From NCBI GenBank assembly GCA_034436975.1, contig DAOTUE010000011.1, positions 68,079-132,078 on the forward strand: a stretch of 64,000 bases of DNA. Reading direction: 5' to 3'. The notes under the pieces are model-generated. The model worked only from the letters and a program-made list of their open reading frames with translations, was not told where the DNA came from and searched no databases. Source of the stretch: Chloroflexaceae bacterium (lineage in GTDB: Bacteria; Chloroflexota; Chloroflexia; Chloroflexales; Chloroflexaceae). Within the stretch, counting starts at the first letter, position 1; each line of letters begins with the position of its first letter. This document shows positions 6,567-63,835 of this stretch, in pieces. Both the position numbers and the translations under genes were made by a program.

Positions 6567-6647
6567 AGTGCCCCTTTGCTTTATGTTTTATGATTCTTAT
6601 TTTTCTTCTTGCCCTGCTATTGTACCACGACAACGCATTGCTGTGTT

Positions 6648-6692
6648 GTAATCGTTCAGACCCCCACCTATCCTCCCCCCGGTGGGGGACCT
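6648..6692 (+). repeat. Family-A (GTAATCGTTCAG) element, 5' fragment A1
   Basis: GTAATCGTTCAGACCCCCACCTATCCTCCCCCCGGTGGGGG matches the left end of the full copies at 44115 and 59167. Confidence 0.7.
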
Positions 6693-6854
6693 GAAACGAC
6701 CACGAAACCGGAGTGATGTGGGCCCGTATCTGGCCATTGGTCTGCCATAGTCTGTGGTAGAATGATAGGGCAAACGCAGGATAGGATACCTTGTGCTTCC
6801 GGAAAACACGGAGTGGGAAGAAGTAGTCTCAAAAACTGGTCAAAGAGGAGAACC

Positions 6855-8273: not shown

Positions 8274-8317
8274 GATAGGGGATAGGGACCTGGGGAGCAC
8301 GGACATCCTGCCGCCCC

Positions 8318-8379
8318 GTGCAAGCGAGACGTTTGTGCTCTCAGAGATTGAGGCTTGCCCGAACCCAGTGAACGCTTAC
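8318..8379 (+). repeat. Family-A element, 3' half (A7)
   Basis: GTGCAAGCGAGACGTTTGTGCTC...TTGCCCGAACCCAGTGAACGCTTAC matches the right half of copy 44115-44250. Confidence 0.7.
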
Positions 8380-8434
8380 CAAATACCCATCCTCGTTGCG
8401 TTCATGATCTATACAGGAGCGTTACAGAAGCGTT

Positions 8435-8968
8435 ATGTGTGTGGTTGCTCCCAACGAATTGCATACCTATCGCCAGCAGTGGCGGCGCGAGGGGATGCGG
8501 GTTGTCCTGACCAACGGCGTGTTTGACCTGCTCCACAGTGGGCATGTGCGCTACCTGGAGCAGGCCCGCTCCCTGGGCGATATTCTGGTTGTTGGTATCA
8601 ACAGTGATGCTTCGACCCGCAAGATCAAGGGGCCGCTGCGCCCCCTTGTGTCCCAGGACGAACGGGCCTACCTGCTCGCTGCAATCCGCTGGGTAGATTA
8701 CGTGACGGTGTTTGACGAACCAACCGCCGAAGCCCTGGTCCGCACTCTTGCACCCGATGTGTACGTCAAAGGAGGGGATTACGCAATGGCCACAACAGAG
8801 GCAGCGATCTCGTTGCACCAGCAGGTAGACGAAACTCGCCTGCCGGAAGCACGGGTGGCCCGGGCCGGCGGCGGGCGCGTTGTGCTGGTGCCATACCATC
8901 CTGGCCTTTCGACCACGGCCCTGATCGAGCGGATTGCCGGGCGATACGGAGGGAAAATTGAGCTATGA
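8435..8968 (+). CDS. hldC: D-glycero-beta-D-manno-heptose-1-phosphate adenylyltransferase-like cytidylyltransferase-fold protein (HldE domain II type)
   Basis: TNGVFDLLHSGHVRYLEQA, INSDAST and VKGGDY motifs follow the HldE C-terminal domain pattern. The TGA overlaps the ATG of the next gene (ATGA at 8965-8968). Confidence 0.65.
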   Translation: MCVVAPNELHTYRQQWRREGMRVVLTNGVFDLLHSGHVRYLEQARSLGDILVVGINSDASTRKIKGPLRPLVSQDERAYLLAAIRWVDYVTVFDEPTAEALVRTLAPDVYVKGGDYAMATTEAAISLHQQVDETRLPEARVARAGGGRVVLVPYHPGLSTTALIERIAGRYGGKIEL

Positions 8969-11900
8969 TCGAAGAAGTCAATCTTCAACAGCAAGACGAG
9001 TATACCCGCTACGAAAAAGGACTGAACGAACTGTTCAAGCGGTTGGGAGAATCTCACCCGACCCTCGCCGAAGCGCACAAATTTCAGCAGCGGTTGCTCA
9101 AAAACATTGCCAACTCTCGGAGATATGGGGAAAGCGAGTTGAGCCGTTCGGAACTGTTGAAAGTGGTTGAACAGATCAACCGTCTCGCGCTCAACGAACT
9201 GGGGGTCTCGTTCTATGAACTGAGCGGATGCCCCACTGTGAGTACGAAAACGGGGCAATGGGCCCTCTTCTCCGATGCCGAGTGTCGCCTGCGCGAACAG
9301 ATTGCCGACCCGGCTCTGCGTTCTAGCATCAACTCGATCCGCCACACGGTTGAGTATATCTGGAATGAGGAAAAACCACGCATTATTCAGGATGGCACCG
9401 ACCACGGGCCGGAGTATTGCAAGCGGTTGATGGAATTTGCCGACCGGCTGCTGGCGGCAAACGATGGTCGCAGCCTCTCGCCCCAGGAACTCTACCTGCT
9501 GCTGGCGGGTATCTACCTGCACGACATCGGGATGCAGTGCGATGTGGTGGAGATGCCGGAAGTGCGCGAGCGGGCCGAAAAGATGGGCGCACGGTTCAAT
9601 GTTGATTTTGGGCAGAAGAAACCAGGGTCCTACACCATCCGACACCAGAAAGCGATCCGCAAAAACCACGCCTACCTCTCGGCGGCCTGGATTGCCTATG
9701 CCCGCCAGACGGGAGACACCGCCCTCGGCCCCGCCGCCATGAGCATCCCCCGCGAGTTGCTCGACGACCTGGTAGATGTGTGTTGCTATCATACGGGGCT
9801 GCCACTGAACGATTGCCCCATCACGTTGAAATTTGACCCGGCCGGGCGCAAACAGCTTATTGTTGCGCTGCTACGCTTTGCCGACGAACTGGATATTGAG
9901 ATCAACCGGGTTCCCATTGAGGTTATCAATACCCATGTTATTGACCAGCGCAACATTGTCTACTGGTGGCTGCACAACCGCGCACGGGTGCTCTTTATTG
10001 CTCGCAACGTCATTCGGCTGGCCATATTTTTGCACCCCGACGACGCAGCAGCCTATGGCGATTTTGTCTACAATGCGTTTATCAACGAGTTTCAGAGCCG
10101 CAATGCGCCAGTCCTCAATATCCTGGCAAAAAACGGCTTCCCCATCGTCATTGATGCCGAATCACAGATAGAAACCTACGAACGCGAAGAATTTCTCCCC
10201 CCCGACGTGGTGCAGGCCTTCCAGACTGCGCTCCAGCGTGAGCCGCTGTATGAGCTGGCCGAAGAGGTGCGGACCTGGCTCCGCGCCATGCGCTATGAAG
10301 TGACTGCACCGCAGCAACGAGAAGAGTATATCTTCGAGATGATAGCAACGCTCGACCTGGGCGCGGTGCGACAACGTATCTGTGTGCGCTGTGTGGGGGG
10401 CACGCTCAAGGTGCAAGACGTGGATGGCCTGGACAAAGTGCTTGGGCGCAAAATGCCCCAGGGTTGGCTCATTTGCGAAAAACGAGTTCCCGACGCGGTG
10501 CATACGCGAATCGAAGCGCAGAAAGACGATGCCATTGAGGTCTTTACCCTGGCAGAGTTTTTGCAGCAGAAGGTGTGGGGGCCCTACCTCGATGCGCTGA
10601 CGGCCCTGGTTGAAAAAGACTGCATTACCAGCTACTATGTAGATCTGAAAGGCTATTTGCCCGATTGGAACGAAGAGAAAGCAGACGGCAGCGACGAAAC
10701 CAAACACATCCCCCTGAGCAGCCTGGATGACTACGTGGACATCTGGCTGTCCGGGCGGGGCAGGCGGCACCTCACCATCCTCGGTGATTATGGCACAGGC
10801 AAAAGTTGGTTTTGCCGCCACTACGCCGACCGCCAGCTCAAACGCTACCTCAAGGACCCCGCCCACGAGCGGCTTCCTCTCCTCATCACCCTGCGCGATT
10901 TTACCAGGGCAATGAATGTGCAACAATTGCTCAATGAGGCCCTGCTGGAACACTATAAACTGCCCTTTGTCGGCAGTGGCTACCCGGTGTTTGACGAAAT
11001 CAACCGGCGTGGCAAACTGCTTCTCATCCTCGATGGCTTTGATGAAATGGCGCGGCAGGCCGACACGAGTGAGGCAATCGCAGAAAACTTCCGCGAACTG
11101 GCGCAACTGGTCGAAGATAACAGCAAAGTCATTCTCACGAGCCAGCCGGGATACTTCTCCTGTGGCAATACAGGGAGAGAGAGCCGTGAGGAACCGCTTC
11201 ATCCTTCAATAGTCTCCCGTCTTCCCGGTTTCGAGGTGCTCTTTCTGGAGCCATTTGACGACGCGCAAATCCGCCGCGTTATCACGCTGCGACTTGGCGC
11301 GAAGCAAGGGCCAGCCCTGGCAGAGCATATCTTGCAAACCCCCAACCTCTCGTTGATTGCCCGCAAAGCAGTGCGCATTGACCTGCTGCTCAGTGCGCTA
11401 CAAGAAGTGAACGAAGAAGTCTTGCAAGAGCTGGCCCATGTCTACCTCTATGCCACCAACGCGCTACTGCTCCGCAACATTGACACCCGCCGCACCTTTA
11501 CCGCATCCACAGACAAGATCTATTTCCTCTGTGAACTGGCCTGGGAGATGATACGCAGCGGCGAGGCTCGTATTCACTACAGCCAGATCCCACAACGCAT
11601 CAAGACATTTTTCGGGCCGCGCCTCAAGGACCAGCACGAACTCGACACCTGGGATTATGACCTGCGCCAGCAAAGATTGTTGCTCCGCAACGCTGCGGGC
11701 TACTACGAATTTTCCCACAAGGTTATTGCCGAATACTTTGTTGCCTACAAGGTTGCGGCCGAACTGGGGTGCCTCTCCCCTCTCTTCCCCGAAACCTATT
11801 GCGACACCGCCGGCTGTGAGTCGGGCATACCACAGCGGGAGTTTGCAGAGCTGGCGGAGACCTTTGGTGCGATAAGCCTGGGAAATCAGCGGATGCAAGG

Positions 11901-12441
11901 TATTCGCACGCTGCTACCGGGAATGCTTACGGATGATGCGCCGGAACGGTTGCGGGCCCTGATAGCTGCTACCAGAGGCAAAACACCACAACAGGTGCGC
12001 TACATCGGGGGGAATGCGATAACCCTGCTCAATACGCTGGGAGAACTATTTGCCAGGGCAAACCTGGAAAATACCGTGTTGACAGGAGGCGATATTCGCG
12101 GGGCGAATCTCAGCGAAGCCAACCTGCGCCACGCCAGCATCTGCGAGACATCGCTGCAAGATGCGATGTTGGACAACACCGACCTGCGTGGGGCCAACCT
12201 GGCCCTGTGCCCTGCGCTGCTGGCTGGCACAACCTGCCGTGGGGCGCAGATTGGCGGTGCTCGCGGGCTGGACCAGCAATTCAGGGATGGCGAAGGGGAA
12301 CCTCTCTATACCCTCCTGGAACTTTTCGCCGAGCGAGGAGCCGTGCTCGACAGCGAGCAGCAGCAGGTGCTTGCAGAAAAGCAGGTGGACCGGCAGGCAG
12401 GAAAGAGAAAGACCGGAACCGCGTCGGGGACGTTTAGATAA
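8965..12441 (+). CDS. STAND/NACHT-type P-loop NTPase with N-terminal helical module, HD phosphohydrolase domain, degenerate restriction-endonuclease-like domain and C-terminal pentapeptide repeats
   Basis: 1158 aa. HD signature: H147, YLH186D187IGM, LLRFAD307ELD. Walker A is GDYGTGK613S and Walker B is LLLILD690GFDE. The C-terminal repeats read ANLENTVLTGGDIRGANLSEANLRHASICETSLQDAMLDNTDLRGANL. Confidence 0.8.
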   Translation: MIEEVNLQQQDEYTRYEKGLNELFKRLGESHPTLAEAHKFQQRLLKNIANSRRYGESELSRSELLKVVEQINRLALNELGVSFYELSGCPTVSTKTGQWALFSDAECRLREQIADPALRSSINSIRHTVEYIWNEEKPRIIQDGTDHGPEYCKRLMEFADRLLAANDGRSLSPQELYLLLAGIYLHDIGMQCDVVEMPEVRERAEKMGARFNVDFGQKKPGSYTIRHQKAIRKNHAYLSAAWIAYARQTGDTALGPAAMSIPRELLDDLVDVCCYHTGLPLNDCPITLKFDPAGRKQLIVALLRFADELDIEINRVPIEVINTHVIDQRNIVYWWLHNRARVLFIARNVIRLAIFLHPDDAAAYGDFVYNAFINEFQSRNAPVLNILAKNGFPIVIDAESQIETYEREEFLPPDVVQAFQTALQREPLYELAEEVRTWLRAMRYEVTAPQQREEYIFEMIATLDLGAVRQRICVRCVGGTLKVQDVDGLDKVLGRKMPQGWLICEKRVPDAVHTRIEAQKDDAIEVFTLAEFLQQKVWGPYLDALTALVEKDCITSYYVDLKGYLPDWNEEKADGSDETKHIPLSSLDDYVDIWLSGRGRRHLTILGDYGTGKSWFCRHYADRQLKRYLKDPAHERLPLLITLRDFTRAMNVQQLLNEALLEHYKLPFVGSGYPVFDEINRRGKLLLILDGFDEMARQADTSEAIAENFRELAQLVEDNSKVILTSQPGYFSCGNTGRESREEPLHPSIVSRLPGFEVLFLEPFDDAQIRRVITLRLGAKQGPALAEHILQTPNLSLIARKAVRIDLLLSALQEVNEEVLQELAHVYLYATNALLLRNIDTRRTFTASTDKIYFLCELAWEMIRSGEARIHYSQIPQRIKTFFGPRLKDQHELDTWDYDLRQQRLLLRNAAGYYEFSHKVIAEYFVAYKVAAELGCLSPLFPETYCDTAGCESGIPQREFAELAETFGAISLGNQRMQGIRTLLPGMLTDDAPERLRALIAATRGKTPQQVRYIGGNAITLLNTLGELFARANLENTVLTGGDIRGANLSEANLRHASICETSLQDAMLDNTDLRGANLALCPALLAGTTCRGAQIGGARGLDQQFRDGEGEPLYTLLELFAERGAVLDSEQQQVLAEKQVDRQAGKRKTGTASGTFR

Positions 12442-12460
12442 CCGGTTAAATAACCAGTTA
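12439..12460 (+). promoter_or_regulatory. Two tandem palindromic 10-mers TAACCGGTTA / TAACCAGTTA (candidate TetR-type operator half-sites)
   Basis: Perfect palindrome TAACCGGTTA (12439-12448), then TAACCAGTTA (12451-12460). A related ACTGGTTA lies at 12727-12734, just downstream of the predicted tetR promoter. Confidence 0.25.
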
Positions 12461-12685
12461 TACCAGATTTGCCTTCAAAATAACAAGAAAGCTGCAAAGG
12501 AGAGGATAGGAAGACAGCTCTGGAAGCGCAAGCGTCCCGCTTGCCATCAGCAGGATGGTGATTGAGGATGTGCAGGTAGACATTGCCCGCCTGAACGATC
12601 CTACCTTGATCCCACCTTGCATGGCAATCAGTATCAAGACCCGGCGTGCCTGGATGAACGCTCCCCTCATCTTCGTATTTGCCCC

Positions 12686-12714
12686 TTGACGCACCCCTCG
12701 CGGTGTGCTATGCT
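12686..12714 (+). promoter_or_regulatory. Candidate sigma70-type promoter of the TetR/ABC efflux operon
   Basis: TTGACG (12686-12691), 17-nt spacer, TATGCT (12709-12714), 45 nt upstream of the tetR-like ATG. Confidence 0.4.
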
Positions 12715-12758
12715 TATTATTGACTGACTGGTTAATCAAGAAACAAGAAAGCAAGAGC

Positions 12759-13434: not shown

Positions 13435-14559
13435 ATGAGATTGCTCGCGCTCATCCGCAAAGAGTTTATTCAGATTATCCGTGACCCGCGCACGCTGGCC
13501 CTCACGTTTGCCATGCCGATCATGCAGCTTATTCTCCTGGGCTATGCGGCCACAAACGATGTGCGAAACCTTCCCCTAGTCATCTTCGACCAGGACAAGT
13601 CGTCGGCCTCGCGGGAACTGCTGGATGCCTACCGCGTGTCCGACTACTTCCGCGAAACGCACATTGTGCAATCGGAAGCCGACCTTCGCACCCTGCTCGA
13701 CCGTGGCTCGGTGCGTGTGGGCATTGTCATTCCGCCCGACTATGGCAAGCGTATTGCCGACGGGCGCATGGCGCAGGTGGCGTTTGTCATAGATGGCTCC
13801 GACCCGACCGTAGCGGGCACGGCCCTCTCAGCAGCCACGCTGATAGGCCAGGCAAAATCTACCGAACTGCTGCTAGAACGGCTGGAGCGGAGCGGGCAGG
13901 CGGGCGCATTCCGCCCGGCCCTGGAGGTCCGCACGCGGGTATGGTACAACCCCGACCTGGAAAGCTCCTACTACATGGTTCCGGCCCTCATCGGGTTGAT
14001 CCTGCAATTCCTCACAACAATTTTGACAGCCAGTTCTATTGTGCGGGAGCGGGAGCGCGGAACGATTGAGCAGCTTATTGTCACCCCCATCCGCTCGTGG
14101 GAGCTGATTGTTGGCAAGCTGACCCCCTATGTGCTGATTGCCTTTCTCGATGCGGTTGAAATTTTGCTGGCCGGAGTGCTCCTCTTTGGTGTGCCCATCA
14201 ACGGGAGCGTGCCGCTGCTGCTCACACTGGCGGCCCTCTTCCTCATAACGACGCTCGGTATTGGCCTCTTCATCTCAACCATCTCGAACACGCAGCAGGA
14301 AGCAATCCTCTCCTCAATGTTTACCATTTTGCCCTCGCTCTTCCTGTCGGGGTTCTTCTTTCCGCTGGAGGCAATGCCGAAAGTTTTGCAAATCATCAGC
14401 TACGCTATCCCGCTACGCTACTTTCTTATTGTTGTGCGGGGTATCGTGCTCAAAGGGGTGGGAACAGAAATGCTCTGGAAAGAAATACTTTTGCTCAGTC
14501 TTTTCGCCATCATTATTATGGGAGCAGCGGCGGCTCGGTTTCGCAAGCGGCTTGATTAG
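13435..14559 (+). CDS. ABC-2 type transporter permease
   Basis: 374 aa. N-terminal LIRKEFIQIIRDPRTL, a large extracytoplasmic loop, then 5 C-terminal TM segments. This layout resembles YbhS/YbhR-like ABC-2 permeases. Confidence 0.8.
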   Translation: MRLLALIRKEFIQIIRDPRTLALTFAMPIMQLILLGYAATNDVRNLPLVIFDQDKSSASRELLDAYRVSDYFRETHIVQSEADLRTLLDRGSVRVGIVIPPDYGKRIADGRMAQVAFVIDGSDPTVAGTALSAATLIGQAKSTELLLERLERSGQAGAFRPALEVRTRVWYNPDLESSYYMVPALIGLILQFLTTILTASSIVRERERGTIEQLIVTPIRSWELIVGKLTPYVLIAFLDAVEILLAGVLLFGVPINGSVPLLLTLAALFLITTLGIGLFISTISNTQQEAILSSMFTILPSLFLSGFFFPLEAMPKVLQIISYAIPLRYFLIVVRGIVLKGVGTEMLWKEILLLSLFAIIIMGAAAARFRKRLD

Positions 14560-17539: not shown

Positions 17540-19168
17540 CTACGGCGACACCCGCGGCCCCCACGAGAAAAACCAGAATCCCTTTTTGACCGCACCGGTA
17601 TCTGTAGGGTCAAACCCTTCGGGCCATTTCGTCCGTTTGTTGTATATCGCCTCGCTCAGGTTCACGCCGCTCAGGTTCGCCCCGCTCAGGTTCGCCCACC
17701 GAATATCGGCATTGTTCAGGTCGGCGTTGCTCAGGTCGGCGTTGCTCAGGTCGGCAGAAATCAGGTTTGCCCCCTCCATACTGGCTCCCTGAAAGCTGGT
17801 TCCGCGGAGTTTCGCGCCGCTCAGATCGGTGCCGCGCAGGTCATACCCATGAAAATCGTAGCCACTCAAGTTGGCTTCGCTCAGGTTTGTCCCACGCAGG
17901 TTTGTTCCCTCCAGCCTGGCTCCCGTGAGCTGCGATTCGATCGTAGCCTCGCTCAGGTTTGCCTCGCTCAGGTCAGTCTCGCTCAAATCCAGGTCCCTCA
18001 GGGTAAAGCCACTCAGGTCTAGCCCGCGCAAACTCGCCCGGTGCAGGGTTGCTCTGGTCAGGTTGGCCCAGGCTTCGCCGGTGGGCACCCACTCGCCCTT
18101 GTTGTCCAGCTTGTAGATACGGCGTAAATCGGTCTGGCTGAGATCGATCTCACTCAAATTTGCTTCGGTAAGGTTGGCAGAACCAAACCGTGCCCCCTTC
18201 AAGATTGCTCCGTGCAGGTTTGCCCCCACCAGTTTTGCCTCGCAGACCAGTGCATCGCTCAGATTGGCCCGCTCCATGTGAGCCAGTCCAAGATTTGCTT
18301 GCAGCAGAATAGCACCGCTCAAATCGCTCTCGGTCAGCCTGACCCCATACATAAAGGCTTCGGTCAGGTTTGCGCGGCCCAGGTCGGCCCGCTCCAGGTT
18401 TGTTTCATTCAGGTCCGCATAGCTCAGATTAAACCCGCTCAGGTTGACCCCTTCCATATTCGCCATAGCCAGCCGGGCCCGTATCAGTCGGGACCCTTGT
18501 AGATTGGCCCCGCGGAGGTTCGCACGGCTCAGGTCAATTTCGCTCAGGGGCAACCCGGAGAGGTTTGCTTCCTCCAGATTTGCATCCATCATCAGCACCC
18601 CACTCAGCGTGACCTCGTTCAAGTTAGCCCCGCTCAAGTTGACCCATCGGAGATTGACCTGGTTGAGCACGGCCCCTTGCAGGTTGACCCCGCTCAGAAT
18701 GGCGCGGCTGAGATTTGTTCCATTGAGGATAGCTCCGGAGAGGTTGACCCCGCTCAGGTCGGCCTCGCTCAGGTCGGCCCCACTCAGATTTGCCCTGCTC
18801 AGGTCGGCCCCGCGCATTTCGACACCTATCATCGTGGACCTGCTCAGGTTGGCTTCGGTCAGGGTGGTTTCCAGCAAACCGGAGCCACTCAGATTGGCCC
18901 CGCTCAGGTTGGCCTCGGCCATATTGGCCTGGATCAGATTGGTCTCTATCAGCGTCGCCTCGCTCAACACTGCCTGCGTGAGATCGGACTGACTTAAATT
19001 CGACCGGCTTAAATCTGATTTATTGAATCTGGATTTGCGAAACGAAGCCCCACGCAGCGATAGTTGAGAAAGATTCAGGCGAGTCAGGGTTTCCTCTTCG
19101 AGGACTATTGCCTCTGGTGCTTTCGATTCAATGAGTTGCTCAATTTGCTGTCGGGTCAATTTTGCCAT
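17540..19168 (-). CDS. Large pentapeptide-repeat protein (~540 aa, almost entirely A(D/N)LxX repeats)
   Basis: ORF 17540..19309. ATG at 19168 (MAKLTRQQIEQL). More than 80 consecutive pentapeptide units (ANLSGANLSG..., ADLSEADLSG...), with one short non-repeat insertion and a ~35-aa non-repeat tail. Confidence 0.85.
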   Translation of the reverse strand: MAKLTRQQIEQLIESKAPEAIVLEEETLTRLNLSQLSLRGASFRKSRFNKSDLSRSNLSQSDLTQAVLSEATLIETNLIQANMAEANLSGANLSGSGLLETTLTEANLSRSTMIGVEMRGADLSRANLSGADLSEADLSGVNLSGAILNGTNLSRAILSGVNLQGAVLNQVNLRWVNLSGANLNEVTLSGVLMMDANLEEANLSGLPLSEIDLSRANLRGANLQGSRLIRARLAMANMEGVNLSGFNLSYADLNETNLERADLGRANLTEAFMYGVRLTESDLSGAILLQANLGLAHMERANLSDALVCEAKLVGANLHGAILKGARFGSANLTEANLSEIDLSQTDLRRIYKLDNKGEWVPTGEAWANLTRATLHRASLRGLDLSGFTLRDLDLSETDLSEANLSEATIESQLTGARLEGTNLRGTNLSEANLSGYDFHGYDLRGTDLSGAKLRGTSFQGASMEGANLISADLSNADLSNADLNNADIRWANLSGANLSGVNLSEAIYNKRTKWPEGFDPTDTGAVKKGFWFFSWGPRVSP

Positions 19169-19568
19169 AACACTGTCGCATGGGTACCCACCTGCTGCGT
19201 GTTGTGGGAGAGGGCAACCACTGCTATCCCATCCTTTCTTTTCTTTCTTCTTTCTGTCTGCGCTCCAACTTGGTATCTCTGTGACACTGCTGGACAATTG
19301 CCTGGACAATTGATTGTGCCCATAATAGTATCATACAACGTGAGAATGTGCCACACCCTTTCCAACTTTTCAATGACCGTATAAACCCGCCGCAAGCCAC
19401 GTCACTTTAGTGGCAGTGGTCACATCGGTGTTGCTGGACGGAGAAGTATGCTATACTACCGGAAGTTATGGGATCGTTGCCAGATTTTATACCAGATACG
19501 ACAGGATGTTCTTTCGAGGCAATTCAAGGCATTTGAGAAAAAAGGCTTAAGAGGAATAGACAGAACCT

Positions 19569-30310: not shown

Positions 30311-30426
30311 GTAATCGTTCAGGCCCCCCACCTGGCCTTCCCCCAGCGGGGGGTATGCATCGGGGCAAGCGAGACGCTTGCGCTTCCAGGGATCAGGGAT
30401 TGCCCGAACACAGGGAACGTTTTCAC
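30311..30426 (+). mobile_element. Family-A MITE-like element, copy A2
   Basis: It starts GTAATCGTTCAGGCCCCCCACCTGG, contains the GCAAGCGAGACGCTTGC hairpin, and ends GGGAACGTTTTCAC. It fills the gap between the nuclease-like gene and lipA. Confidence 0.75.
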
Positions 30427-44006: not shown

Positions 44007-44114
44007 GACGCTCATGTGAGGGCGCAGTGCAGAATGAAGCAGGAATTTCGGAAATGGACAAAGCGTACCTTTGGGTACATTTGAACACGTAGAAAGTAGC
44101 AGAATAAGGTAGTC

Positions 44115-44250
44115 GTAATCGTTCAGGACCCCCACCTGTCCTCCCCCCACTGGGGAGAGGGATTGGGAGGGGGGACGCGCCCGTATCGGGGCAAGCGAGA
44201 CGCTTGCGCTCCCAGGGATTGAGGGTTGCCCGAACCCAGTGAACGTTTAC
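44115..44250 (+). mobile_element. Family-A MITE-like element, copy A4
   Basis: It starts GTAATCGTTCAGG, has the interior CCCCCACCTGTCCTCCCCCC..GGGGAGAGGGATTGGGAGGGG and GCAAGCGAGACGCTTGC, and ends CAGTGAACGTTTAC (imperfect TIR). Confidence 0.8.
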
Positions 44251-44424
44251 AGGTAGTCTATTGAGAAATCTGGAGTTTCTCCAACAGGAACTTCAGGAAA
44301 GGTCCACGGAAACAATTTGCAATTGTCTGGCGGGTTCTGCGTTCTATAAGATATAGTGAAACAAGTAGCAGGAGCAGAGAAGCAGAATGATTGCCAGTCT
44401 GATCAAGCATAGGTGGGGTTTATT

Positions 44425-54818: not shown

Positions 54819-56738
54819 ATGCTTATCTGTCTTGCTCAACGAGGAGATGTTCTTTGTCGAACAACGAATCGGAATGAGGCGAAGCATTGTCGCCAGTGTG
54901 GGAAATCGCTTCGCAACGCTATGTATGTGCATGATCCCGATACCCTGATTGGCAGCTATCGGGTGAAGAAAGTCATTGGTCATGGGAGTTTCGGCGCAGT
55001 CTACCAGGCCGAGCATGTCGAACGGCCCGCGGTGAAAGTCGCGCTCAAGGAAACATTTGACCCCAACAGCATCGCCAGCTTTGCCCACGAATTTGATGTG
55101 CTCTGCAACTATACCCACGACAACCTGCCCGGCTACTACGAAATGTTTGAGCACAGAGGAAATGGCTACCTCGTGATGGAGTTTGTGCCGGGGCAGAGCT
55201 TGCAGAATATCCTCAACAAGCAGCGCGGCTCTGTGCCGACCAGGTTAGTCATATTCTATGCAGAGCAGCTCTGCGATGTGCTTGAATACTTGCACGGACA
55301 AAACCCGCCCATCTTCCACCGCGACATCAAGCCGGCCAACATCCGCCTCACGCCGGAAGGGTTGCTCAAACTGGTGGACTTCGGACTGGTCAAGCAGGGC
55401 ACCGACCAGACCCGTAGCATGATCCGCGGCTTTGGCACGCCAGCATATGAGCCATTCGAGCAGCTTGGCAATGGCACAACCGACCAGCGCAGCGACCTCT
55501 ACAGCACCGCGGCAACGCTCTACCACCTCTTCACGGGCAAGCGTCCTCCGACCGTCCTGGAGCGTATTTCTGTCGCAACAGACCCGCTCATCAATCCTGG
55601 TCAGATCAACCCGAAGATCCCGGAGCATATCTCCAGAACAATTGTTCGGACGATGGCTCCGTTTCAGAAGGACCGCCCCCCCAACGTGGCGGTTTTTCGG
55701 AACATGCTGATGGGAGAGGAAGAAATCGCTCCCTCCGCATCGCTCCCCGCTTCTCAGCCAGCGCAAGCCAGGGTTGTTGCTCCTGCAACCGACACGTCCT
55801 CACTGCTGGCCAGTGTTAGCTCCGAGGTCCAGGTTGCGCTGGATGCGATTTCGTCCACCCAGCACCCTGGTTCTTCCTCAAGCACCCTGAATCTCCCCCA
55901 CAACGTGCGTGAGTGGCGCATCGAGGCCAGAAGACTCAACGAGATGTTTGGCGAACCATCCGGCTACTGGTGTTATGTGCGCCCCGGACGCTACCGTATC
56001 GGTGGGTGGGAGAAAGGCGAGCCATCTCATATTGCCACGCTCCCGGCCTTCTGGATAGCGCGGTTTCCCCTGACCGTCTCTCAATATGTCCCGTTTATAG
56101 AGACTGGAGGCTACGAAGCAAGCAGCCAGGCGTGGTGGACCCCGCAGGGCCGGGAGTGGAAAGCCCGCACGGCCCGAAGCCTGCCTATTTTGTGGGATGA
56201 TCCGGCTTTCACCACCTCGAACCAACCAGTTATTGGGGTAAGCTGGTATGAAGCGGTAGCGTTTGCGGCCTGGCTCAATGAGCAGGTGTGCGACGAATTG
56301 CCAGAGGGCCTCCGCGTCCGTCTCCCCACCGAGGCGGAATGGGAGGCAGCCGAAGCCTACAACGCGGCAATGGAGCGGTGTCACTATCCCTGGGGCAACG
56401 ATGACGACCCCACCCCCGAACACGCCGTCTATGACCGCGGGGAGACCGGGCACACGGCCAGGGTGGGTACCTGCCCGGCGGGAGCAGCGGCCTGTGGTGC
56501 CCAGGATATGGCCGGCAATGTGTGGGAGTGGACAACCAGTAGCTACAAAGGGTATCCCCACGAGAGTACCAGAATGCGCGACGATATTACCGCCGGTGAG
56601 TGGGATGTGCCGGTCCGCGGTGGCTCGTGGTGGGATTACCGCACTTTTATGCGCTGCGGCACCCGCGACCGCTACCGCCCGGACTTTCCGAGCCATATTT
56701 TTGGTTTTCGTCTGGTTATCGCGCCTCTGGTTACGTAA
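54819..56738 (+). CDS. Ser/Thr protein kinase fused to a C-terminal formylglycine-generating-enzyme (FGE/SUMF1)-like domain, with N-terminal zinc ribbon
   Basis: CRQCG zinc ribbon; kinase motifs GHGSFGAVY, HRDIKPANI, DFGL; Ser/Pro linker; FGE-like PVIGVSWYEAVAFAAW, RLPTEAEWE, GNVWEWT, RGGSWW. Confidence 0.8.
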   Translation: MLICLAQRGDVLCRTTNRNEAKHCRQCGKSLRNAMYVHDPDTLIGSYRVKKVIGHGSFGAVYQAEHVERPAVKVALKETFDPNSIASFAHEFDVLCNYTHDNLPGYYEMFEHRGNGYLVMEFVPGQSLQNILNKQRGSVPTRLVIFYAEQLCDVLEYLHGQNPPIFHRDIKPANIRLTPEGLLKLVDFGLVKQGTDQTRSMIRGFGTPAYEPFEQLGNGTTDQRSDLYSTAATLYHLFTGKRPPTVLERISVATDPLINPGQINPKIPEHISRTIVRTMAPFQKDRPPNVAVFRNMLMGEEEIAPSASLPASQPAQARVVAPATDTSSLLASVSSEVQVALDAISSTQHPGSSSSTLNLPHNVREWRIEARRLNEMFGEPSGYWCYVRPGRYRIGGWEKGEPSHIATLPAFWIARFPLTVSQYVPFIETGGYEASSQAWWTPQGREWKARTARSLPILWDDPAFTTSNQPVIGVSWYEAVAFAAWLNEQVCDELPEGLRVRLPTEAEWEAAEAYNAAMERCHYPWGNDDDPTPEHAVYDRGETGHTARVGTCPAGAAACGAQDMAGNVWEWTTSSYKGYPHESTRMRDDITAGEWDVPVRGGSWWDYRTFMRCGTRDRYRPDFPSHIFGFRLVIAPLVT

Positions 56739-56830
56739 TCGTTCAGCCCCCCACCTGTCCTCCCCCCAGTGGGGGGAGGGATTGGGAGGGGAGCGCACGT
56801 GCACCGGTGCAAGCAAGATGCCCGCTTCCT
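56735..56830 (+). repeat. Family-A element, copy A5 (diverged right half)
   Basis: GTAATCGTTCAGCCCCCCACCTGTCCTCCCCCCAGTGGGGGGAGGGATTGGGAGGGG. The stop codon of the kinase gene lies inside the left terminus. Confidence 0.7.
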
Positions 56831-59092: not shown

Positions 59093-59166
59093 CGGGCCGA
59101 ACAAAAGCGACGATCTTTTCTGCAAAGTGCCCGGCAGCCAGTAAGGATTGTAACACAATGACGAAC

Positions 59167-59297
59167 GTAATCGTTCAGTCCCCCACTTGTCCTCCCCCCA
59201 GCGGAGGGATGGATTGGGAGGGGGGAGCTTCGCCCGTGATCTCAGAAGCGATACTCCTTGTTCTGAAGGATTATATTTATCCCCCCTGAACGATTAC
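59167..59297 (+). mobile_element. Family-A MITE-like element, copy A6 (perfect 12-bp terminal inverted repeats)
   Basis: It starts GTAATCGTTCAG (59167-59178) and ends CTGAACGATTAC (59286-59297). The interior carries CCCCCACTTGTCCTCCCCCC..GGAGGGATGGATTGGGAGGGGGG. Confidence 0.8.
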
Positions 59298-63769: not shown

Positions 63770-63835
63770 TTGCCGGCATCAATGCAAGCGAGACGCTTGC
63801 GCTCCCTGGATTCACCTTCAAACGTGAACAATTAC
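63770..63835 (+). repeat. Family-A element, 3' half (A8)
   Basis: ATGCAAGCGAGACGCTTGCGCTCCCTGGATT...GTGAACAATTAC matches the right half of copy A4. Confidence 0.65.

Follow-up and report, generated by a model that had tools for sequence, protein, structure and literature searches.

According to the text of Kibby et al. (bioRxiv 10.1101/2022.07.19.500537), bacterial NACHT (bNACHT) proteins bearing enzymatic effectors at the N-terminus provide anti-phage protection for which the Walker A lysine is required, among them bNACHT25 with an Mrr-like restriction endonuclease (REase) as effector. The gene described here, located at positions 8965–12441 of a 64,000-nt stretch of Chloroflexaceae DNA (contig DAOTUE010000011.1; "the window" refers to this whole stretch), encodes an 1158-aa NACHT protein that is probably a stand-alone immune sensor of the bNACHT type, that is, related to bacterial NLR proteins, with an HD-CE phosphohydrolase module as effector. 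A single-protein immune sensor had already been proposed in an initial annotation of this DNA, and the reading is supported by the analyses presented below, from which we infer the immune function. The window protein shares with the bNACHT proteins the central NACHT module, the Walker B form D[GAS]hDE, the winged-helix histidine, the single-gene organization, the enzymatic N-terminus and a C-terminus that is short or built from variable repeats, and its predicted fold matches NLRP3, NOD2 and NLRC4. In contrast, its effector is HD-CE, a domain found neither by term searches in the text of Kibby et al. nor in the abbreviation key of their Figure 2, and it additionally shows an inactive internal REase fold, a pentapeptide beta-helix as predicted sensor and a mat-dwelling host of the Chloroflexales type. 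None of the tested bNACHT members is detectably close to the window protein, as judged from PADLOC matching.

Avs (AVAST) proteins (Avs1–5 and later families) show the same succession of effector, STAND NTPase and C-terminal sensor, and ligand-induced oligomerization would be expected in both cases, but they represent another STAND clade and their PADLOC models do not match the window protein. Avs sensors are mostly TPR-like helical arrays, with terminase, portal and similar proteins of phages as ligands. In the portion of the Avs literature searched, nucleases, SIR2 domains and proteases are named as effectors, whereas the term "HD domain" was not found. Further relatives occur in filamentous cyanobacteria as large single proteins, among them those from Nostoc sp. 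C052 (WP_179069641.1, annotated as "caspase family protein") and Nostoc ATCC 53789 (WP_114080806.1). These relatives possess the same chassis of NA-iREase1, NACHT and helical region at about 33% identity but are plasmid-borne and differ by a caspase or NNH5 N-terminus and a long WD40 array. The NTP-dependent conflict systems (Kaur, Burroughs, Iyer & Aravind, eLife 2020, 2021), finally, also occur in filamentous hosts, combine STAND modules with pentapeptide, WD40, TPR or HEAT repeats and possess swappable N-terminal domains, and the N-terminal module of the window protein co-occurs with their EAD7, bDLD1 and EAD1 domains. Unlike these systems, the window gene stands alone without MoxR-vWA or other partners, and its N-terminal module lies outside the Pfam EAD and bDLD families.

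Domain Architecture and Predicted Structure

By Pfam profile search, the HD, REase-like, NACHT and pentapeptide domains of the initial annotation were all recovered in the same N-to-C order, and the open reading frame (ORF) is real and complete (Table 1). For judging motif conservation, an alignment of 55 family sequences was used. The NACHT profile PF05729 matches aa 603–729 at 32.4 bits (cut-off 26.7), and the previously noted Walker A (GDYGTGK613S) and Walker B (LLLILD690GFDE) motifs are present, with G610, G612, K613, D690, G691, D693 and H918 being invariant and E694 conserved in at least 90% of the sequences. The DGFDE stretch (690–694) conforms to D[GAS]hDE, which the text of Kibby et al. 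gives as the NACHT-specific form of Walker B. H918 is found within YYEFSHKxxAEYFVA of the winged-helix region (FSH918K), a segment that by eye resembles the NLR winged-helix motif, making H918 a candidate equivalent of NLRC4 H443. A full-length AlphaFold2 model calculated from the family alignment (mean predicted local distance difference test score, pLDDT, of 85; predicted template modeling score, pTM, of 0.74) retrieved NLRP3, NOD2 and NLRC4 as best Foldseek matches in the PDB (probability 1.0, E between 1e-10 and 1e-8, alignments over 530–740 columns), followed by Cdc6/Orc. In this model, HD-CE forms an all-alpha region, and the P-loop core is of the alpha/beta type with helical and winged-helix extensions. 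Hence, by sequence as well as by fold, the protein belongs to the NACHT NTPases, and profiles for both STAND/NACHT and HD domains are matched.

The HD-CE profile (PF24391) matches aa 145–354 with an E-value of 1.2e-27, so that the metal-binding H...HD...D motif and the family profile are both present. Conserved residues are H147, H186-D187, H235, H276, E308, D310 and H337. Of the HD signature put forward initially, H147 and YLH186D187 stood up to the alignment (H186 invariant, H147 and D187 conserved in at least 90%), but the invariant positions of RFADELD are E308 and D310 and not D307, which is only nearly invariant and replaced by His in the homologues P0017 and P0048. In a fold search against the PDB, the stand-alone HD-CE model (pLDDT 88.9, pTM 0.90) weakly resembles the C-terminal HD-like domain of PPX/GppA (E of about 0.01, probability 0.9–0.99) and, further off, SAMHD1 and cyclic-nucleotide phosphodiesterases (E > 0.2), while a profile search against PDB sequences gave an uncharacterized HD hydrolase as best match (E = 0.11). 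HD-CE is hence a distant branch of the HD/PDEase superfamily, to which known structures assign no substrate.

The following segment corresponds to PF22722, "NACHT-associated inactive restriction endonuclease 1" (NA-iREase1), matching aa 431–533 at E = 1.2e-18 (1e-18 to 9e-20 across searches), and aa 427–528 are modeled as alpha-beta-beta-beta-alpha-beta. An invariant or nearly invariant Asp or Lys was not found within aa 431–535 of the alignment. This bears out the earlier description of a REase-like segment with substituted catalytic positions and supports its assignment as an inactive PD-(D/E)xK fold. Toward the C-terminus, the pentapeptide profile PF00805 matches aa 1047–1079 at 36–41 bits (cut-off 20.2). 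The modeled beta-helix, with a strand every five residues and pLDDT above 90, runs from about 1033 to 1100 and is thus slightly longer than the stretch of about aa 1030–1085 to which the repeats had been assigned. The subsequent tail is different or absent in most homologues.

Selection on the Core and on the C-Terminus

Ratios of nonsynonymous to synonymous substitution (dN/dS) were obtained by Nei-Gojobori counting between the window gene and one ortholog of 94% identity. Over the whole gene, dN/dS amounts to 0.11. At the same synonymous divergence (dS of 0.24 in both parts), however, aa 1–1028 show a dN/dS of 0.08 and the residues from 1029 to the end a value of 0.44 (Fisher test, p = 5e-6). 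Within the core, values are 0.05 for HD-CE, 0.03 for the iREase segment and 0.05–0.07 for NACHT, compared to 0.49 in the pentapeptide region and 0.37 in the tail. Likewise, identity to this ortholog (P0001) falls from 96–98% over the core domains to 83% over the pentapeptide repeats and 71% over the tail. The low dN/dS over aa 1–1028 clearly points to a functional gene, including the "dead" REase domain. The C-terminus, on the other hand, evolves in the way of a recognition surface under rapid adaptation, with the reservation that its dN/dS is below 1 and stems from a single pair, and hence is an acceleration and not proven positive selection.

Family Distribution and Exchange of N-Terminal Domains

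A search of 5.8 billion proteins resulted in 185 matches, more than 100 of which combine HD-CE, NA-iREase1 and NACHT at 40–63% identity. The architecture is thus far from unique (more than 100 clusters) and its domains are already curated in Pfam. Nevertheless, in the published literature searched, neither an experimental nor an explicit bioinformatic account of it was found, in agreement with the initial statement that this exact architecture has not been functionally characterized. As approximately read from the Pfam columns, the C-termini consist of pentapeptide repeats only (about 40 proteins), pentapeptide repeats followed by WD40 (about 30), TPR (five) or HEAT/ARM (one). That many relatives carry WD40, TPR or HEAT parts had escaped the initial annotation. 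Named sources are Chloroflexaceae, Anaerolineae, Paenibacillus antri, Ruminiclostridium, Bryobacteraceae, Abitibacteriaceae, Candidatus Argoarchaeum and Theionarchaea; Brocadiaceae, Pyrinomonadaceae, Lamprocystis, Methanosarcinales and ANME-2 archaea come in addition from a scan of GTDB species representatives, which did not recover the species of the window itself. Members are scattered over Chloroflexota, Firmicutes, Acidobacteriota, Planctomycetota and Methanosarcinales archaea. Homologues from distant bacterial phyla and Methanosarcinales are 50–56% identical to the query. The archaeal proteins alone reach 51–56% and are thus as close to the query as is the ortholog at the same position in a related mat organism (50%), an indication of horizontal transfer. 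Carriage by phages was not detected, as tblastn gave no match in 50,697 phage records.

Proteins encoded on plasmids of Nostoc, Calothrix and Acaryochloris are about 33% identical from aa 431 on, and the two of them that were checked combine either a caspase-annotated N-terminus or NNH5 with NA-iREase1, NACHT and WD40. Conversely, HD-CE (aa 100–425, about 50% identity) also heads proteins with TPR, FGE-sulfatase, Mrr_cat, GAF-HD, epimerase or histidine kinase parts. By these two observations, iREase1-NACHT is a chassis with an exchangeable N-terminal slot, and HD-CE is a mobile occupant of such slots. Judging by comparison of the sequences, such swapping is the signature of an effector. The roles originally given to HD as effector and to the pentapeptide repeats as sensor are therefore backed by the exchange at the slot, by the occurrence of HD-CE on other scaffolds and by the about fivefold faster nonsynonymous change of the C-terminus.

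The N-Terminal Three-Helix Module

Upstream of HD-CE, the helical N-terminal module of about 90 aa described initially is confirmed by the AlphaFold2 model (helices 12–27, 34–54, 58–79 and 83–87; pLDDT 84–92) and turned out to be a separate homologous domain. It matches no Pfam or NCBIfam model. Its consensus reads Y.xYE.GL..LL.RLG..HP.Y.EAL.YQQRL.ENI...RRYGDTE..RAER..I...LN.LAL..LG.SFN.LC, and a phmmer search with aa 1–100 over 1.84 billion cluster representatives found 655 proteins at E ≤ 1e-3, where the module occupies the N-terminus or the C-terminus or is repeated in tandem, with 4 stretches counted in P0271 and 11 in P0275. In 139 module proteins, the commonest partners are EAD7 (17), AAA_16/AAA_22, TPR, nSTAND1 (6) and bDLD1 (5), besides FGE-sulfatase, TIR, NACHT, EAD1 and Mrr_cat. 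One protein with EAD7 and the module is encoded next to a second EAD7 protein, an FHA protein and a kinase-FGE-sulfatase protein. Within the HD-CE-NACHT family, the module of about 98 aa is present only in the query, P0001, P0002, P0017, P0048 and P0053; most members begin at the equivalent of query aa 100, and P0003 and P0004 possess a TIR domain there. From its sequence partners, the three-helix module seems to be a so far unannotated part of the conflict-system repertoire of Kaur et al., with an interaction or adaptor role. Its recognition as a separate, mobile and conflict-system-associated domain adds to the initial annotation and, considering its wide occurrence outside Pfam and NCBIfam models, it deserves a family definition of its own.

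Presence and Absence of the Gene at One Locus

In four related lineages, a NACHT gene follows an rfaE-like gene, namely, in the window, at the locus of the 94% ortholog (L023), at L024–L026 from the same mat project and in a Chloroflexaceae metagenome-assembled genome (L108). At L024–L026, the NACHT ortholog is 50%, PGI 75% and the rfaE-like protein 63% identical to the window counterparts. The ortholog at L108 (10001–14514, JAAUSY010000001.1) possesses an additional TIR domain at its N-terminus, while its WD40 part is encoded by a separate overlapping ORF, which may be due to a frameshift or an assembly error. Between a fifth relative (L027) and L024, the downstream DUF433 and radical-SAM gene products are 94% and 88% identical, respectively, while the NACHT proteins share only 73%. 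Together with the conserved position, this indicates that the locus is old in the lineage and that NACHT has changed more rapidly than the genes on either side.

In 12 metagenome loci with PGI 73–75% identical to that of the window, on the other hand, a NACHT homologue was found in none; nine show the rfaE-like gene after PGI and five extend over at least 8 kb of downstream sequence. In the two of these loci that were examined, both Chloroflexus-like, the slot is filled with DUF6519 genes (L029, 10312–15601; L033, 13040–20979), accompanied in L033 by baseplate-J and Mu Gp48-like genes, which suggests a contractile tail-like cluster. The different contents after PGI and the rfaE-like gene show that the slot is variable. 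Neighbors of distant homologues differ as well, being a pur operon with GmrSD_N, HicB with a trp operon, gyrBA with secDF, or a DDE transposase with UDG. Hence, the NACHT gene is accessory and without conserved partner. With presence and absence at one and the same locus among relatives and members in bacteria as well as archaea, the patchy phylogenetic distribution anticipated in the initial annotation is indeed observed; with the gene missing from the slot in five loci and homologues scattered, the family does not consist of single-copy core genes in lineage-wide synteny.

Surroundings of the homologues are mostly of the housekeeping kind, some with toxin–antitoxin (TA) genes, a transposase, GmrSD_N or TIR-AAA_35 nearby. 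At L024, for example, a TIR_2+AAA_35 gene (333–2126) lies 8 kb upstream and a TA-like DUF5615/DUF433 pair (13592–14082) directly downstream of NACHT. In Candidatus Argoarchaeum ethanivorans (L111, 5583–13327), the homologue is located directly downstream of gyrB-gyrA. Gyrase is a binding target of some pentapeptide-repeat proteins, for example, Qnr and MfpA; the adjacency, being a single case, is probably a coincidence.

Gene Context in the Window

Features of the NACHT gene and its borders are compiled in Table 1. A protein identical to the window's NACHT protein is encoded on 8 contigs from a microbial-mat metagenome (PRJEB25599) and related runs, and the best named relatives of the window's PGI are from Chloroflexus sp. 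(72%) and Roseiflexaceae (68–69%), which places the window in a filamentous bacterium of the Chloroflexales type. Upstream neighbors are genes for a PreP-like M16 peptidase, PGI and the rfaE-like cytidylyltransferase. On the downstream side, the NACHT gene is followed by a TetR-ABC exporter operon and by the genes for a large pentapeptide protein, YchF and pyruvate kinase. A Shine-Dalgarno-like GGAGGG is found about 10 nt 5' of the NACHT start, and the ATG overlaps with the TGA stop of the rfaE-like gene as ATGA. This overlap and the adjacency in four lineages would suggest a functional link between both genes, which was rejected, as relatives keep the rfaE-like gene without NACHT, and it is further weakened by the distant NACHT homologues residing beside other genes. 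Thus, the rfaE-like gene is a positional neighbor and not a demonstrated partner.

Table 1. Position and basis of assignment of the NACHT gene, its modules and the adjoining elements (nt, window coordinates).
Feature	Position	Strand	Basis
rfaE-like cytidylyltransferase gene, upstream	8435..8968	+	Pfam CTP_transf_like
NACHT (NLR-like STAND) protein gene, complete	8965..12441	+	ORF list and translation; 1158 aa, ATG to TAA
Three-helix module, candidate adaptor/interaction domain of conflict systems	8992..9234 (aa 10–90)	+	AlphaFold2
HD-CE phosphohydrolase module, predicted effector	9262..10239 (aa 100–425)	+	Pfam, conserved residues
NA-iREase1	10255..10569 (aa 431–535)	+	Pfam PF22722, model
NACHT NTPase module: P-loop core, helical domains, winged helix	10759..11769 (aa ~599–935)	+	Pfam, motifs, Foldseek
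Helical spacer between NACHT module and repeats	11770..12048 (aa ~936–1028)	+	AlphaFold2 helices 940–1024; intermediate conservation
Pentapeptide-repeat beta-helix, ~14 pentapeptides, predicted sensor surface	12049..12273 (aa ~1029–1103)	+	Pfam PF00805, PF13599; model
Variable C-terminal alpha/beta tail	12274..12438 (aa 1104–1158)	+	Model: strands 1105–1107 and 1113–1116, helices 1117–1123 and 1130–1149
317-bp spacer with predicted promoter/operator region of the downstream TetR-ABC operon	12442..12758	.	Sigma-70-like site, palindromes, TetR gene call

The spacer, which lies outside the NACHT gene proper, has the length of 317 bp given initially, provided that 12759 is the TetR start, which is the position called on an identical contig. 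It contains a sigma-70-like promoter site (12686–12714), and no terminator-like site was found on its + strand. The palindrome TTGACTGACTGGTTAATCAA is located immediately 5' of the TetR start and the related AACCGGTTAAATAACCAGTTA directly after the NACHT stop, and both are candidate TetR operators for the downstream ABC-exporter operon. The "family-A repeat fragment" reported upstream of the gene is most likely a copy of a dispersed repeat at 8312–8380 but not directly adjoining, as this copy has PGI on one side and the rfaE-like gene on the other and lies 585 bp ahead of the NACHT gene. Such GC-rich intergenic repeats with internal palindromes are found at 6646–6709, 8312–8380, 30311–30425, 44114–44251, 56733–56796, 59165–59228 and 63776–63814. 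Five kb downstream of the NACHT gene, a gene at 17540–19309 (–) encodes a 589-aa protein consisting nearly completely of pentapeptide repeats (355 bits against NCBIfam penta_Alr5209), with 15-nt periodic repeats at the DNA level. When the 64-kb window was searched for further copies, neither the N-terminal module nor the NACHT gene was found again, and only this unrelated pentapeptide gene cross-matches.

Discussion

In line with the established behavior of those bNACHT and Avs proteins that have been tested, the window protein would rest as a closed ADP-bound monomer with the winged-helix His918 on the nucleotide. A ligand from an invader, or a change of a host protein induced by it, would bind to the fast-evolving pentapeptide beta-helix and tail, lifting autoinhibition and enabling the NACHT module to exchange its nucleotide and to oligomerize. 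The oligomer would gather the HD-CE domains into a metal-dependent phosphodiesterase or phosphohydrolase active on nucleic acid or nucleotides, with the outcome that phage replication is halted or that the infected cell is arrested in growth or dies (abortive infection). The dead REase-fold domain might be a constant element of the chassis with the role of a scaffold or nucleic-acid-binding platform, and the three-helix module might be an interaction or adaptor domain in common with EAD/Death-like conflict systems. A more far-reaching version would take the beta-helix as a Qnr/MfpA-like DNA-mimic bait for phage DNA-binding proteins or for the perturbation of a host DNA enzyme such as gyrase, HD-CE as a new class of dinuclear phosphodiesterase effectors of NLR-like proteins and the three-helix module as a new homotypic adaptor linking single-protein NLRs to the EAD7/bDLD network of filamentous bacteria; taken together, these proposals are speculative and quite unlikely to hold.

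Several findings weigh against an immune sensor of this kind. In PADLOC, no Avs or NLR model is matched, the best being CARF_HD (E = 4e-4 over 50 aa) and mad8 (E = 4e-3, at the P-loop), so that the protein is a NACHT protein outside all defense families listed there, Avs included. Of the anti-phage models in NCBIfam, only DS8_antiphage is hit, at 34 bits against a cut-off of 790. The window locus has housekeeping surroundings and is no defense island, and a stable NACHT position across relatives with PGI only 75% identical is unusual for a defense gene. Furthermore, the literature searched holds no experimental work on a NACHT protein with HD effector or on a pentapeptide sensor; a close solved relative of HD-CE from which a substrate might be assigned is missing; and the beta-helix of about 14 pentapeptides makes a small sensor compared to the arrays of WD40 or TPR units that many relatives possess.

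Regarding the effector step, the main rival is an HD-CE that hydrolyzes nucleotides of the pool or signal nucleotides and is not a nuclease, for example, by SAMHD1/dGTPase-like depletion of dNTPs or by acting on (p)ppGpp, polyphosphate or cyclic nucleotides, so that the same chassis and trigger would lead to metabolite depletion. It is kept in this position because the fold neighbors in the PDB, albeit weak, all act on small phosphate compounds (PPX/GppA, SAMHD1 and phosphodiesterases) and the best PDB sequence match is an uncharacterized HD hydrolase. However, with template modeling scores of 0.2–0.3 and E-values not below 0.009, these matches are weak, and the adjoining REase fold, though inactive, suggests contact with nucleic acid. 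In addition, the H-HD-H-H-D pattern of HD-CE resembles the one typical of dinuclear HD phosphodiesterases, Cas3 and other nucleases included. On balance, a purely nucleotide-directed activity seems rather unlikely.

Two further explanations are ranked as less likely. The protein might be a non-immune housekeeping STAND switch comparable to MalT, AfsR or GutR, controlling its phosphohydrolase in response to an endogenous ligand and inherited vertically in the Chloroflexales lineage. The position after the rfaE-like gene in four lineages, the translational coupling to that gene in the window, the housekeeping neighbors and the absence of a defense-model match would fit well with this. However, a DNA-binding output domain is lacking, equally related genomes have the slot without the gene, and members are scattered across phyla and into archaea beside unrelated neighbors; the N-terminal swaps for TIR, caspase and NNH5, the fast C-terminus and the module partners EAD7, bDLD1, TIR and nSTAND1 argue in the same direction, making such a switch very improbable. 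Even harder to defend is an arrangement in which HD-CE and iREase form a constant regulatory or nucleic-acid-sensing part and output proceeds via the extreme N-terminal module, recruiting effectors homotypically as in EAD/Death-like systems. It could draw on the co-occurrence of the three-helix module with EAD7, bDLD1 and EAD1 and on the variable domain preceding HD-CE in a minority of members (six proteins with the three-helix module, two with TIR and a single one with an extension of 543 aa). In contrast, about 90% of the family begin directly with HD-CE and would be left without any other enzymatic domain, strong purifying selection acts on the catalytic residues of HD, which are invariant, and the 64-kb window contains no second gene with the three-helix module.

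If the preferred reading of a stand-alone bNACHT-type sensor with HD-CE effector is true, HD phosphohydrolases would be added to the effectors of prokaryotic NLR-like proteins, and the family would provide the first functional case of a pentapeptide-repeat sensor. Such a finding extends a well-established paradigm and does not overturn current views. With representatives in bacteria as well as archaea that vary mostly in their sensor, the family may represent a natural series for retargeting one and the same chassis by sensor exchange.

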